Assembly: GCF_054482595.1 (NCBI RefSeq)
Contig: NZ_JBTHVH010000004.1
DNA length: 64,000 nucleotides
Direction: 5' to 3' (one strand)
Source: a plasmid
A program made the position numbers and the translations under genes. Under the pieces are notes generated by a model, which had not been told where the DNA came from, searched no databases, and worked only from the letters and a program-made list of their open reading frames with translations. This document shows positions 29,743 through 33,408 of this stretch, piece after piece (positions within the stretch are counted from its first letter, which is position 1; the number at the start of each line of letters is the position of its first letter).

Positions 29743-30150
29743 ATGAATGAAAACTCAGTAATCTTAATAAGTTTATTTTGGTTTTTTTTGGGATCGAGTG
29801 TTGTAGCTGGTTTTATGGATGCATCATTATATTGCTGGATTTTTGCAGCCATAAGCGCATTGTTTCTTCTTTCGGTGATACAAACACCAAAGGAGTTAAC
29901 GGTATCTATTAGTCATATGACAAGCAAAACGCTGATCTCAAAGACAGATGATGGATACACATTTAGCATTTCACCTTACGGAGACGGGTACCGCTTATCA
30001 GTCTCGCCTGAAAATCGTCACAATGGTACCCAAAGCTTTGACGGCTGGTTCCCACGTTTTTTTTCCGAACCACAGTATGCCAAATCATCTTTAACTAAAT
30101 TTCTCGGTGAGTCCTTAGTATGGGAAGAAGATTCAAGTAATGCTCTATGA
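29743..30150 (+). CDS. Hypothetical membrane protein (135 aa)
   Basis: Two N-terminal hydrophobic segments; AT-rich. Confidence 0.4.
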   Translation: MNENSVILISLFWFFLGSSVVAGFMDASLYCWIFAAISALFLLSVIQTPKELTVSISHMTSKTLISKTDDGYTFSISPYGDGYRLSVSPENRHNGTQSFDGWFPRFFSEPQYAKSSLTKFLGESLVWEEDSSNAL

Positions 30151-30195
30151 GATTACTTATTATAAATTTTTCTATTAATCTCCATGGAGTGATAT

Positions 30196-30450
30196 ATGAA
30201 TTTGGCCTATTTTTTATTTTTGTCTATAACTGTTATGCTTACGAGCTTTATTATTAAATCACTTGTCGTATTGGTAAAGTTCAAATTACTTCGTGATGAA
30301 CGTCTCGAATATACCAGCAATAAAAATATTGATGAGATGTACGATTTAATGAATGCGAAGGAAGAAATCCTCATAAGGCATCATAAGCAGATGTTGGCAT
30401 TGCATCTTTCACTATTAATATTCGTTCTATTTATTGCTTACATTTACTAA
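30196..30450 (+). CDS. Hypothetical small membrane protein (84 aa)
   Basis: Hydrophobic segments at both termini; about 30% GC. Confidence 0.4.
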   Translation: MNLAYFLFLSITVMLTSFIIKSLVVLVKFKLLRDERLEYTSNKNIDEMYDLMNAKEEILIRHHKQMLALHLSLLIFVLFIAYIY

Positions 30451-30487
30451 AAATAATTTTATTCAACATTTCAACAAAGGGTTTTCA

Positions 30488-30775
30488 ATGGAAAGCTTCG
30501 AAACTGAACAAATGATTCAATATGCTTTCTACATAAATATCGTAATAACGACTGGTTTGGCATGGTTTTGCTTGCGGTCAGGATTGCATTACAATTTTTT
30601 CAGAAAAGCAGAGAGTGCCAGAACAAAAGGGCTGAGTAGTACCTCTACTGAACACGGTCCAGCAATAGTGAGACTAAAGAAGCTACAAGCATTAGTAGAT
30701 TTTATTAGTAACTGTGCTTTTCTAATCCTTTCAATTGGCACAGCTTATATTTTGTATGTTTGGAGCCACAGTTAA
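30488..30775 (+). CDS. Hypothetical small membrane protein (about 96 aa)
   Basis: Track ORF 30434..30775; first ATG with upstream AAAGGG at 30488; two hydrophobic segments. Confidence 0.4.
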   Translation: MESFETEQMIQYAFYINIVITTGLAWFCLRSGLHYNFFRKAESARTKGLSSTSTEHGPAIVRLKKLQALVDFISNCAFLILSIGTAYILYVWSHS

Positions 30776-30844
30776 CTCATACGAGGTAACTTCGGCAGGT
30801 AACAACTTCTAATGCAGGACTTTAATAACTCTAAGGGATTCTAC

Positions 30845-31042
30845 ATGAAAAAAGACGATCTAATTACGCGTTGTAAATTACTTAAAGGCGAACGCGATGA
30901 GTCTATCTTTACCATATTAATTGGGATAGTAGTAAAGCTGGGGCTGGTAGGCCTGGCATTCTATCTGTTGCTTGGTTCCACGATTGATTGGTCAAGCTGG
31001 AAAACTTATGCCGCCATGTTGATCTTGGGAGCATTTCTCTAA
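30845..31042 (+). CDS. Hypothetical small membrane protein (about 66 aa)
   Basis: Track ORF 30812..31042; internal ATG at 30845 (MKKDDLITR...); two hydrophobic segments. Confidence 0.35.
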   Translation: MKKDDLITRCKLLKGERDESIFTILIGIVVKLGLVGLAFYLLLGSTIDWSSWKTYAAMLILGAFL

Positions 31043-31378
31043 AATCTTGAACCTTTTTTCACTCATTACAAGCCATGACCTAGTGCGTAGATCATACGAT
31101 CTTTAAACCTTATGTCATTGATTTATAAGTACATATAACAAAGATTATGTTAAATACTGTATGTATGTACAGCATCAACAGTTGCCCCCCTCATATTGAG
31201 GTAATTGCTACATTCATACCACTATTCTTCTTATAGTATCGACATCCTGAATTATTGCACCCTACTGCTTTGTCTTTAGCTGTTCCGAATTAAAATTCAT
31301 TGCTCAATTTGGATCACATGACGATCAGCGTATTCCTTTGCTTTATCAAAGTTAAGTTTTTAAAACATAAGATATGTA

Positions 31379-31840
31379 ATGACAAATTCTCAATCTGATT
31401 TTCCTTTGAACGATCAAAATTTTCAGGCAGATTTGCTGAAAATCAAAAAGGTTTTCGCCGACCTTATAACGCAGGCATCAGATGGTAAGATACCCATAAG
31501 GTCTTCTCATGTACACGGCTTACACCATTTCGAGGAGCTCTACATCCGGGCAAGAGCAGGCATGTGTTCGGTCCTGGGATATCCGGTCATGGTTGTTTCA
31601 ACTATCTCAGTTAAAGAGCCCGGCACAGGCATTTTTAGAGCGCTTCTTGCAGAATTGAAATGTATTGCAGATGAACAAAATTACATTTTGAAAATTGAAA
31701 ATGTACTGCCTCCCCTATTCCGCAAATACCTTATTCAAGAAGGTTTTGTTTTCCCAGGTGAACCTTGGATGTGTGGTTCCGGCTATTGGTTTAAGAACCC
31801 ACAAGTACTTCATGAAAATATTGAGTTATTATCTGTTTAA
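31379..31840 (+). CDS. Hypothetical protein (153 aa), possibly GNAT-like
   Basis: ...KEPGTGIFRALLAEL... weakly resembles the GNAT acetyl-CoA binding motif. Confidence 0.35.
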   Translation: MTNSQSDFPLNDQNFQADLLKIKKVFADLITQASDGKIPIRSSHVHGLHHFEELYIRARAGMCSVLGYPVMVVSTISVKEPGTGIFRALLAELKCIADEQNYILKIENVLPPLFRKYLIQEGFVFPGEPWMCGSGYWFKNPQVLHENIELLSV

Positions 31841-31869
31841 GTCGATCTAACAATTTCACTGGAGCTAAC

Positions 31870-32277
31870 ATGTCCCCGGAATTGGTATCAGACATTGCAA
31901 GAGTGGCGCATGAAAAGCTACTTTCAATTTTAACGGAGTGCGGCATAGAGAAGACGGCAGGCACTTGCCTTTTTGCAAGCTATCTTGTGTGTTATTTAGC
32001 AAAAACTAAAGGTCTAGATGCTGTTGTCCGTGGGGGTAACGGTGCAGATGATGGCGGTATATTTATAGAGTGTGGTGGCTTTGGCCATTATTGGTGTGAG
32101 TTGAATTTCGAAGAAGTGCAATATTATATTGACATCACTTCCGAACAGTTTGGGTTTCATCCATACATAGTGAAACTCGCCAACGATATAACAGGATGGC
32201 CTCGATATATTCCTGGTGATCAGGAAACGGTCGATAGTCATTTAGAACAATTATTACGCGACGGCTATACAGAATAG
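31870..32277 (+). CDS. Hypothetical protein (135 aa)
   Basis: ORF track; 29 bp after previous gene. Confidence 0.4.
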   Translation: MSPELVSDIARVAHEKLLSILTECGIEKTAGTCLFASYLVCYLAKTKGLDAVVRGGNGADDGGIFIECGGFGHYWCELNFEEVQYYIDITSEQFGFHPYIVKLANDITGWPRYIPGDQETVDSHLEQLLRDGYTE

Positions 32278-32327
32278 GCTGCGTATACCCTATCGCAGCC
32301 TTTCAGGCTCTTAACCCTTGTGACCTG

Positions 32328-32855
32328 TTAACGGAACCACTCAGGATGACGCTGCCGATCAACTTTGATAACCTGCGAATTAAATTCAACGACATCCGCT
32401 GGAGTAAGCATTAATTCATCAGGATTTACAATAAATGGTCTTAAAACCACTTCGCCACCGTCTTCTTTTGCACCGTAGATATTAATAAGAAAGTGCAGTC
32501 GTTGATTTCCTTCAGCATTGCGTTGCCATTCTCTAAAAGTCAAAGTTTGTTTAATATAGTTTGTTAAAAGAAATGCGAATTCAGATTCTTCCGTTTGTGA
32601 GATACCGATTTTGTTAGACATTTTTTTTAGTATCTTTCCGAGCATGGACACACAGGCATCTAGACTTAACGATGTTGAAATTTTGGTCGTATTAAAATCC
32701 TCCTGCGAAAGTGAAATCATCCATGTATTATCTTTATGATAGTCGGTAATATAAATAAAATGAGATGTAAAAGGCGTTGAGTGATTGAACTCTCCTAAGT
32801 TCCATCCATACTGACTCACTGTATTTGAGCTAAGTTCTTTGTCGGTAATGTTCAT
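32328..32855 (-). CDS. Hypothetical protein (175 aa)
   Basis: ORF track only. Confidence 0.4.
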   Translation of the reverse strand: MNITDKELSSNTVSQYGWNLGEFNHSTPFTSHFIYITDYHKDNTWMISLSQEDFNTTKISTSLSLDACVSMLGKILKKMSNKIGISQTEESEFAFLLTNYIKQTLTFREWQRNAEGNQRLHFLINIYGAKEDGGEVVLRPFIVNPDELMLTPADVVEFNSQVIKVDRQRHPEWFR

Positions 32856-33021
32856 AATTCATACCTTTCGATAAAGTCTGTAATGATAATTAGCTATCTC
32901 AAAGGACCAGAACAACTCTTGAAATAACCACACTCGAAGAATTTATCATATTGAACACCCCTACCTAATAACCTTGCCGACTTAATAAATCACAATAGCC
33001 CTCCCCTGACATTTTAAAATG

Positions 33022-33408
33022 CTACTTGAATTTTTGATAGCTTATGGTTGTTTTATGTTCTTTGTGATACGCATATGTCATCTTCTCTTTCCAGTACCAA
33101 TCTTGTAGATCCTGCAAGTCTAGCCCATTTTTCTCACGTATGCTTTCGTGTAATTCGCTAAGCGCGAGTTTATCATTAGGTTTATAAATGGCTAATTTTT
33201 CTTCAAATAAATCCAGCCAACGTTTCCCCATCTTACGACGCAAAACAAACACCATCGTGATAAATGTAATGAAATGCACAGCAATTAGTTCCAACTTATG
33301 CGATTGCTGACCAGATAAAATTACTATTGTAACAACAGGGATGGCCGTATATAAAGCAATCAAAGCGACCATAAGTTGGTATGGTTTTTCCCGTATTACC
33401 ATGTTCAT
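33022..33408 (-). CDS. Hypothetical membrane protein (128 aa)
   Basis: Two hydrophobic segments then a charged C-terminal region. Confidence 0.4.
   Translation of the reverse strand: MNMVIREKPYQLMVALIALYTAIPVVTIVILSGQQSHKLELIAVHFITFITMVFVLRRKMGKRWLDLFEEKLAIYKPNDKLALSELHESIREKNGLDLQDLQDWYWKEKMTYAYHKEHKTTISYQKFK

Follow-up and report, generated by a model that had tools for sequence, protein, structure and literature searches.

An AT-rich segment of small genes on an IncHI2 plasmid as a probable part of the conjugative backbone

When a run of small, unnamed and AT-rich genes lies directly beside a transposon on a resistance plasmid, is it an island brought in from elsewhere or a part of the plasmid itself? 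The question is raised by positions 29743–33408 of a 64,000-nt stretch of plasmid DNA (contig NZ_JBTHVH010000004.1; hereafter, the window), which hold eight open reading frames (ORFs), A to H, from left to right. IncHI2 plasmids are major carriers of mcr, extended-spectrum beta-lactamase and heavy-metal resistance genes; for about half of their backbone, “hypothetical” is the sole annotation. A first-pass annotation, made from the letters alone, had taken the segment for an island of distinct, low-GC origin whose membrane proteins might serve immunity, lysis or phage defense. Comparison with related plasmids leads us to regard it instead as very probably an ordinary, variable, AT-rich part of the conserved IncHI-type conjugative plasmid backbone, not an inserted island.

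Place of the segment in the IncHI backbone

First, the sequence is widespread, and always on the same kind of plasmid. It is 100% identical in hundreds of conjugative plasmids of 180–370 kb from E. coli, Salmonella, Klebsiella and Enterobacter; at least 80% of 29700–33400 is present in no fewer than 618 plasmid records, and at least 80% of 27800–33500 in 247 of 5,426 complete E. coli genomes. The carriers are large conjugative MOBH plasmids, and by the typing given in PLSDB (IncHI2/IncHI2A, MOBH relaxase, MPF-F) the near-identical sequence lies in IncHI2/IncHI2A plasmids, at 100% in at least 618 of them and at 97% in the IncHI2A lineage. The closest described counterpart is the “hypothetical protein region” between dcm and Tra1/umuDC of the R478/pHNSHP45-2-type IncHI2 backbone, which resembles the segment in identity (97–100%), in its flanks (pco, DUF1173, dcm, thermonuclease), in its MOBH relaxase and in its MPF-F typing. 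The window represents the IncHI2 lineage typified by 220–290-kb multiresistance plasmids of E. coli and Salmonella.

Second, gene order is conserved well beyond this lineage. Annotated copies run from the pco operon through DUF4942, DUF1173, a dcm methyltransferase, a thermonuclease and a 298-aa gene into the segment, and then into a truncated transposon with tet(A). The order DUF1173, dcm, thermonuclease, an approximately 300-aa gene and small ORFs recurs in IncHI1 (comparison record L007), IncHI1B (L023, L024) and IncHI2A (L002) plasmids. This shared order, together with a base composition within the range of the backbone, removes the ground for a distinct low-GC origin.

The compositional contrast that had suggested such an origin is itself real: GC content is 37.4% across 29743–33408 and 63.0% across the neighboring 33409–37600, and the neighbor is Tn1721-type DNA, as had been supposed, with an exact 38-bp terminal inverted repeat and a truncated tnpA. 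The first 27.8 kb of the window have 50.6% GC, and the low-GC block begins at about 27800, not at 29743, so as to take in the thermonuclease and 298-aa genes. Other IncHI2 backbone DNA averages 44–47% GC, with 3.67-kb windows of 37.6–51%, and the segment lies at the low end of this range, not outside it as an acquired island would be expected to. It resembles an island only because the 63%-GC transposon abuts it at 33449.

Third, the segment lacks the boundaries of an island, be they repeats, an integrase or a tRNA, and does not come and go as one unit. Its right edge is the inverted repeat of the inserted transposon, no integrase is present, and its two halves are separated in IncHI2A. In that R478-like lineage (about 97% identical), the A–D half is followed by SulP-Usp-ars genes, whereas F, G and H lie several kilobases away (about 8 kb or more), 3′ of a serine-protease gene, and E is missing. 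Homology between the window and IncHI2A ends directly past the stop codon of D and restarts within the last 15 bp of E. In IncHI1, the E–F pair adjoins a gene of 1,111 aa. The window lineage differs from IncHI2A in three ways: it carries a 530-bp deletion within the small-ORF array; its D is followed directly by E, and that of IncHI2A by the SulP-Usp-ars-serine protease genes; and it is without the side bearing the 1,111-aa gene and umuDC, lost to the Tn1721-type insertion and a resistance region. The segment is best described as a set of unrelated small genes, each with a separate history, in a part of the backbone prone to gain and loss.

A divergent IncHI2A plasmid (L006, K. quasipneumoniae pKAM622_2, 4900–11735) was considered as a further test of coding constraint and set aside, and it is not used as evidence here; its 202 gap positions in 2 kb relative to other IncHI2A DNA, together with many unannotated genes, suggest assembly errors. 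It keeps the serine protease, E and F together, possibly the ancestral arrangement.

Several points weigh against reading the segment as ordinary, functional backbone. Most of the backbone is somewhat less AT-rich than this region, and the difference could stem from an older horizontal acquisition by an IncHI ancestor. Two of its frames, B and D, are supported just by their length, ribosome-binding sites and tiling, and the products of E and F stay below every Pfam threshold. In the literature no paper names these proteins, so that statements on function follow from predicted folds, and the single evolution study to cover the region labels it just “hypothetical protein region”.

Table 1. Features of the segment and its flanks (window positions)
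Position	Strand	Feature	Remarks
28281–28796	+	Thermonuclease-family gene, N-terminal signal-like helix	NCBIfam EcnA/NucI and PHROG endonuclease matches
28799–29695	+	Orphan gene, 298 aa	3′ of nuclease in IncHI1, IncHI1B and IncHI2
29692–29721	+	Candidate promoter, best sigma-70-like match	CTGACG-18-TATAAT, 10/12; just 5′ of small-ORF array
29743–29910	+	First 56 codons of a 104-aa membrane-protein gene, two hydrophobic helices	IncHI2A alignment, tblastn, hydropathy
29910–29911		Junction of 530-bp deletion relative to IncHI2A	Alignment
29917–30150	+	Conserved 77-aa soluble protein, C-terminal part of chimeric ORF A	
30196–30450	+	ORF B, 84 aa, hydrophobic helix at each end	GGAG ribosome-binding site; IncHI2 only
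30488–30775	+	ORF C, two-helix membrane protein, 95 aa from ATG	113 aa from TTG at 30434
30845–31042	+	ORF D, small hydrophobic protein, 65 aa	76 aa from ATG at 30812; PGAP coding sequence; IncHI2 only
31043–31378		Lineage-specific AT-rich spacer, 336 bp	IncHI2A homology ends right past D stop
31379–31840	+	Gene E, 153 aa, orphan with predicted GNAT (acyl-CoA N-acyltransferase-like) fold	
31870–32277	+	Gene F, 135 aa, predicted minimal transglutaminase-like/papain-fold enzyme	Cys33-His73-Asp88 triad
32277–32299		Hairpin GGCTGCG…CGCAGCC, 10-nt loop	About −9 kcal/mol on either strand; between convergent F and G
32328–32855	−	Gene G, 175 aa	Strongly conserved orphan of MOBH/MPF-F plasmid backbones
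33022–33408	−	Gene H, 128 aa, two N-terminal transmembrane helices, charged C-terminal tail	IncHI2 only
33431–33448		18 bp between backbone end and transposon end	GCTTGCCAAAATCTTAAA; matches neither backbone nor transposon
33449–33486	+	38-bp terminal inverted repeat of Tn1721/TnAs1-type transposon	Exact match to GGGGAGCCCGCAGAATTCGGAAAAAATCGTACGCTAAG; 41 bp upstream of H start

The small reading frames and the 530-bp deletion

If the segment is backbone, which of its small frames are genes? All eight ORFs of the first-pass annotation are present (Table 1). Same-strand open frames of at least 65 codons tile 94% of 29743–31042, a coverage that none of 1000 dinucleotide shuffles matched (maximum 0.73), so that the small-ORF array is not a product of chance; one or more single frames of that length were found by chance in 86% of the shuffles. 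The Prokaryotic Genome Annotation Pipeline (PGAP) calls A, D (as 65 aa), E, F, G and H, all as “hypothetical protein”, and leaves B and C uncalled. Searches of A–H, as single proteins and as profiles, returned no significant match in Pfam, NCBIfam, PADLOC, PHROGs or PDB sequences, which bears out the earlier remark that none of the ORFs is recognizable, save that E and F can now be assigned to enzyme folds. Random translations of this T-rich DNA often contain hydrophobic 19-mers, and against such a composition null the segments of A, B and C reach p values of about 0.06–0.1 and that of D, the strongest, 0.004; because of this, “hydrophobic helices” by themselves say little.

The most informative of the small frames is ORF A (29743–30150, 135 aa). 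The undeleted form of the array, that of IncHI2A, is retained by about 433 plasmids and has three genes, the first two for membrane proteins (104 and 85 aa) and the third a separate ORF of 77 aa. The 530 bp absent from the window lineage comprise the 3′ part of the first, the whole of the second, a three-helix protein, and the native upstream region of the third. Judged from this alignment, ORF A is a deletion chimera, in which 56 codons of the 104-aa gene are joined in frame with the 77-aa ORF, and not a native gene. One of the four small membrane proteins of the first-pass description is thus such a chimera, and the C-terminal two-thirds of it are a soluble protein.

That soluble part is well conserved. 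Homologues of equal length occur in IncHI1, in IncHI1B and in a further Klebsiella plasmid, at 52–64% identity to the 77-aa protein, and in a Vibrio plasmid, at 34%; they share the pattern …ISP.G.G..LSV.PE.R.NGT..DGWFPR…AK..LT..LG…W, with a common motif around NGT..DGWFPR. The Vibrio copy (L022, 3025–3237) is unannotated and stands directly 5′ of an AAA-ATPase and DUF4435 pair (3347–5395), an arrangement reminiscent of OLD/Gabija-type defense modules.

The remaining small frames differ in standing. ORF C has positional counterparts in IncHI1 and IncHI1B, annotated proteins of 99 aa to which it is 35% identical and which retain its start and its two helices. ORF B is 100% identical in both IncHI2 lineages, and because it is invariant between them no signal of selection can be read from it; it is absent from IncHI1, and a coding role is plausible. 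ORF D has a ratio of nonsynonymous to synonymous substitution rates (dN/dS) of 0.72 against IncHI2A and thus shows no clear constraint. Downstream of the dcm, thermonuclease and 298-aa genes, the array holds a chimera carrying the conserved 77-aa protein, the conserved two-helix protein C, and the IncHI2-only hydrophobic ORFs B and D, of uncertain status. The idea that these ORFs form a paralogous array was rejected: the 104-aa and 85-aa proteins, B, C, D and H, six small proteins in all, are mutually dissimilar, with no pairwise similarity in a 12-sequence database (best E-values 0.015–0.06). Whether the frames of the segment are conserved as coding in relatives, on which the first-pass annotation had made its case depend, varies from gene to gene: A is disrupted, and E is absent from R478-like plasmids and decayed in an IncHI1B plasmid, whereas C, F, G, H and the 77-aa ORF are conserved. 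Protein-level homologues at 33–69% identity exist for the 77-aa ORF, C, E, F and G.

It is here that the earlier functional proposal, namely that the small hydrophobic proteins A–D and H are an array of immunity proteins, holin-like proteins, superinfection- or entry-exclusion factors, or membrane effectors of abortive infection, has to be weighed. There is something to be said for it, as strongly hydrophobic segments, one or two per protein, are present in B, C, D and H, the small genes are arranged in tandem on one strand, the two-helix architecture of C is kept in IncHI1, and proteins so small are invisible to libraries of hidden Markov models, which makes negative searches weak evidence. 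We nevertheless consider the proposal very unlikely. PADLOC has no match for A–F or H, and the neighbors are backbone genes, not those of known anti-phage or abortive-infection systems; PHROG has no match below an E-value of 0.03, and the context is again plasmid backbone rather than that of a holin or superinfection-exclusion gene. The membrane ORFs have no tblastn match in 50,697 phage records, and no ORF other than E has a phage homologue. Immunity arrays are usually paralogous, which these ORFs are not, and no toxin, bacteriocin, endolysin or sensor gene is adjacent. Moreover, A is a deletion chimera and the 85-aa member has been lost, yet the lineage has spread to more than 600 plasmids; the hydrophobic segments are partly what T-rich composition would yield, and the dN/dS of D is 0.72. 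No element of a defense, immunity, lysis or exclusion system is identified in the segment.

Genes E, F and G

What, then, might the larger genes do? For gene E, the guess of a GNAT-like protein in the first-pass annotation is upheld by the predicted structure (predicted local distance difference test, pLDDT, 93), which has the alpha/beta GNAT fold and GNAT structural matches. The assignment is one of predicted fold, for the sequence has no Pfam match at E-values up to 10, no NCBIfam match and no PDB sequence-profile match, and the best structural match is a non-enzymatic ruler domain of a type III secretion system. With the GNAT superfamily, and especially its minimal members such as AcrVA5 and the toxins AtaT and TacT, the model shares the order alpha1-beta2-beta3-beta4-alpha3-beta5-alpha4-beta6 and a glycine-containing beta4-alpha3 loop at the place of the motif that binds the pyrophosphate of coenzyme A (CoA). 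This loop, K79-E-P-G82-T-G84, lies between beta4 (70–78) and alpha3 (85–100), the place at which GNATs have motif A (Q/R-x-x-G-x-G/A); G84 is kept in at least 90% of family members and G82 in about half, and the family also has an invariant Glu on strand beta-5. On the model, a role of the loop in binding acyl-CoA is plausible. Gene E differs from this group in being without strand beta-1, without a match to any Pfam or NCBIfam acetyltransferase profile at E-values up to 10, and without an antitoxin-like partner. From its fold, the protein would transfer an acyl group from acyl-CoA to an amine of a protein or a small molecule.

Relatives of E, 32–42% identical, occur in 47 jumbo phages (about 250–267 kb) of Erwinia, Dickeya and Yersinia, where they sit among small accessory genes, near an RNA 2′-phosphotransferase at least in a Yersinia phage and two related metagenomic contigs. 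In Yersinia phage fHe-Yen9-02 (L018, 11516–15179) and in L012/L013, the E-family gene belongs to a same-strand array with the RNA 2′-phosphotransferase (KptA/Tpt1-like), a radical-SAM protein and sometimes UvdE, which may be a neighborhood of nucleic-acid repair or counter-defense. Among plasmids, the gene is missing from the R478-like IncHI2A lineage and survives in one IncHI1B plasmid as a remnant with a stop codon.

Gene F can be placed with the help of a larger family. An exhaustive search yielded homologues amounting to 133 representatives at 50% clustering, nearly all of 130–160 aa, with relatives in many megaplasmids. In an alignment of 99 sequences, C33, G55, G56, H73 and W75 are invariant and D88, T90, D92, Q93, F94 and G95 nearly so, D88 being kept in at least 90%. 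The AlphaFold model (mean pLDDT 95.8) has the core fold, with transglutaminase-like structural matches, and sets the triad in canonical positions: C33 at the N-terminus of helix 33–46, H73 at the start of strand 73–80 and D88 at the end of strand 83–88. Sequence profiles do not reach this far, as F has no Pfam match at E-values up to 10, and among its 99 family members two match Transglut_core and three Tox-PLDMTX at E-values up to 0.1. On the strength of the model, F is a predicted minimal member of the transglutaminase/papain-fold Cys-His-Asp superfamily. Set beside Atu2299 (2hly), TglA, LapG/BTLCP, arylamine N-acetyltransferases, the SseI and OspI deamidases and McjB, it differs from such enzymes in its length of just 135 aa, in being without accessory domains, in its merely sub-threshold Pfam matches, and in conserved motifs of its own (GG at 55–56; D/T-x-D-Q-F-G after the Asp). 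The comparison is one of fold, and does not tell apart protease, deamidase and transferase; by that fold, F would cleave or form an amide or thioester bond through Cys33.

Do E and F act together? They adjoin one another in the window lineage, in IncHI1 and in one IncHI2A variant. E occurs without F as a neighbor in phages and in Klebsiella IncHI1B/FIB plasmids, and F without E in IncHI2A, in a Pseudomonas megaplasmid and in metagenomic contigs. Given that each occurs alone, and that no fusion of the two was found among 160 proteins, an obligate two-gene system was rejected. An apparent fusion in the IncHI1B plasmid L003 was likewise dismissed, its E-like part being a remnant interrupted by a stop codon and its 199-aa coding sequence a mere upstream extension of F. 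Each gene would rather act singly, as an accessory factor for plasmid establishment or host interaction, and would not be part of a toxin, immunity or lysis system.

Gene G has relatives in IncHI1B (69% identity) and in IncC plasmids (38%), which carry it at a fixed place in an operon downstream of repA; its family has 34 invariant columns, and its dN/dS is 0.32, in keeping with values of about 0.3 for F, G and H alike. It has no significant match in Pfam or PDB, and in PADLOC just PDC-M24A appears (E-value 0.009, 13.8 bits). A further candidate assignment came from Tad5, with which phages inhibit the TIR protein ThsB of Thoeris and which is described as blocking the active site by means of a loop (PMC13402655). 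Three close homologues of G match the Tad5 model (PF25190), residues 65–123 aligning with model positions 29–92 at 16 bits and independent E-values of 1.5e-3 to 0.1. G differs from Tad5 in length (175 aa against a 123-position model), the match lies below significance, and G has no phage homologues; as a sub-threshold, partial match in three near-identical relatives only, it was not accepted as evidence that G is a Tad5-like Thoeris inhibitor.

These genes bring up a second proposal, that one or more of E, F and G neutralize the immunity of the recipient when the plasmid enters. E might, by analogy with the minimal GNAT AcrVA5 and its target Cas12a, acetylate an immune protein, and G might block a TIR effector as Tad5 does. 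The E family is indeed common to large conjugative plasmids and 47 jumbo phages, standing in the latter in small accessory-gene arrays by the RNA 2′-phosphotransferase; E is structurally similar to AcrVA5; the block adjoins an orphan dcm methyltransferase and a nuclease; and the best Tad5 match has an independent E-value of 1.5e-3. The last of these is offset by its coverage of half the model and by its absence from the G of the window, at E-values up to 10, and from divergent members of the family, which leaves the sharing of E with jumbo phages and its likeness to AcrVA5 as the only positive evidence. F, G, H and the small ORFs lack phage homologues; the successful R478-like IncHI2A lineage manages without E, and in an IncHI1B plasmid the gene has decayed. 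On balance we hold this proposal to be improbable, though less so than the one based on the membrane proteins. In its most explicit form, E would be an undescribed GNAT-fold family of IncHI-type plasmids and Enterobacterales jumbo phages that acylates a host immune component on entry, with G and/or F as further counter-defense factors, a reading that is similarly improbable. If it were true, this part of the backbone would be an anti-defense locus and not inert filler.

The transposon junction, the flanks and the significance of the segment

The right edge of the segment shows how its resemblance to an island arose. IncHI2A has umuDC and the 1,111-aa gene on the upstream side of H; a hypothetical gene of about 1,111 aa is conserved directly 5′ of H or its equivalent in IncHI2A (L004, 8649–11984), IncHI1 (L005, 6783–10110) and IncHI1B (L003, 8130–11471). 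In the window lineage this gene has been replaced by the Tn1721-type insertion and the resistance region. The last base with backbone homology is 33430, 22 bp from the start codon of H on its upstream side; there follow 18 bp that may be diverged intergenic DNA or the remnant of an earlier rearrangement, and then the inverted repeat, to which a truncated tnpA of the TnAs1 family adjoins (annotated in identical plasmids). The transposon has thus parted H from the DNA that lay upstream of it. Past the resistance region, the backbone of an identical plasmid restarts inside traG of the Tra1 region, and the part of the backbone beyond H has therefore been lost. The window also has seven dispersed copies of IS26, with 99.9–100% identity across about 820 bp (6793–7620, 9717–10536, 13034–13853, 16987–17808, 38151–38970, 44786–45605, 62857–63682), from which we take the studied backbone segment to be embedded between two IS26-rich multiresistance regions.

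H itself has a dN/dS of 0.30 against IncHI2A. A syntenic 128-aa ORF of IncHI1 was considered as a diverged H and rejected (z = −0.4, no transmembrane helices). G is a backbone orphan that IncC plasmids have as well, and H a membrane protein with two helices that is confined to IncHI2. The hairpin between F and G is possibly a bidirectional terminator, although its 10-nt loop takes it beyond the criteria of the terminator scan. Other signals are scarce: an Rfam scan of 27000–34000 found nothing, and a promoter and terminator scan of the region gave the counts expected from shuffles, so that the promoter-like match before the array (Table 1) is no evidence of function. Another sigma-70-like match (ATGACA-16-TATGAT, 10/12) lies on the minus strand of the D–E spacer at 31091–31118, leftward and antisense to D.

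Could much of the segment be decaying filler, silenced by H-NS, with the chimeric A, B, D and perhaps H as pseudogenes or spurious ORFs? AT-rich DNA is a classic target of H-NS, and IncHI-type plasmids carry H-NS genes of their own. The deletion, the loss of E in IncHI2A, its stop-bearing remnant in IncHI1B and the lineage-specific gains and losses between D and F could all be read in this way, as could the dN/dS of 0.72 for D, the omission of B and C by PGAP and the severing of H. The idea is nonetheless extremely unlikely, because five of the genes, F, G, H, C and the 77-aa ORF, remain whole and keep their protein sequence across distant plasmid groups, with dN/dS of about 0.3 where measurable, the catalytic Cys and His of F are invariant and its Asp nearly so in 99 sequences, and the tiling of open frames far exceeds chance. 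A K. pneumoniae IncFIB/IncHI1B plasmid (L024, 3215–3613) has an H-NS-family gene within its own block of DUF1173, thermonuclease, phospholipase D, small ORFs and E, which fits H-NS-type silencing of these AT-rich backbone segments.

The left flank belongs to the same low-GC block. The product of the thermonuclease-family gene (PGAP “thermonuclease family protein”) is 75% identical in IncHI1 and IncHI1B, and the 298-aa protein, which has no match in Pfam, NCBIfam, PADLOC or PHROG, is 52% identical over its full length in both. A phospholipase-D-family gene lies between the nuclease and 300-aa genes and the small ORFs in IncHI1 (L007, 4168–4947) and in an IncHI1B-type plasmid (L024, 1993–2811), not in IncHI2. 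A few kilobases from the E/F/G/H region, and by ISNCY transposases, sister plasmids carry recognized genes of defense type: in IncHI2A (L004, 78–1997) one for an “S-4TM family putative pore-forming effector”, preceded by a partner gene, and in IncHI1 (L005, 1232–2032) one for a Shedu nuclease; they are absent from the window.

Finally, what does the segment mean for this plasmid family? Current understanding is not overturned by its analysis. The reading as a defense island is removed as a false lead, the stretch being in all probability ordinary conserved backbone, and the chimeric ORF left by the deletion marks one IncHI2 lineage. Annotation gains one real small gene and one real membrane-protein gene that pipelines have missed. 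What is new, besides the corrected gene models, is that two orphan families find a place, by predicted fold, among known enzyme superfamilies: one, with a GNAT fold, is common to these plasmids and jumbo phages, and the other, minimal and transglutaminase-like, is widespread on megaplasmids.

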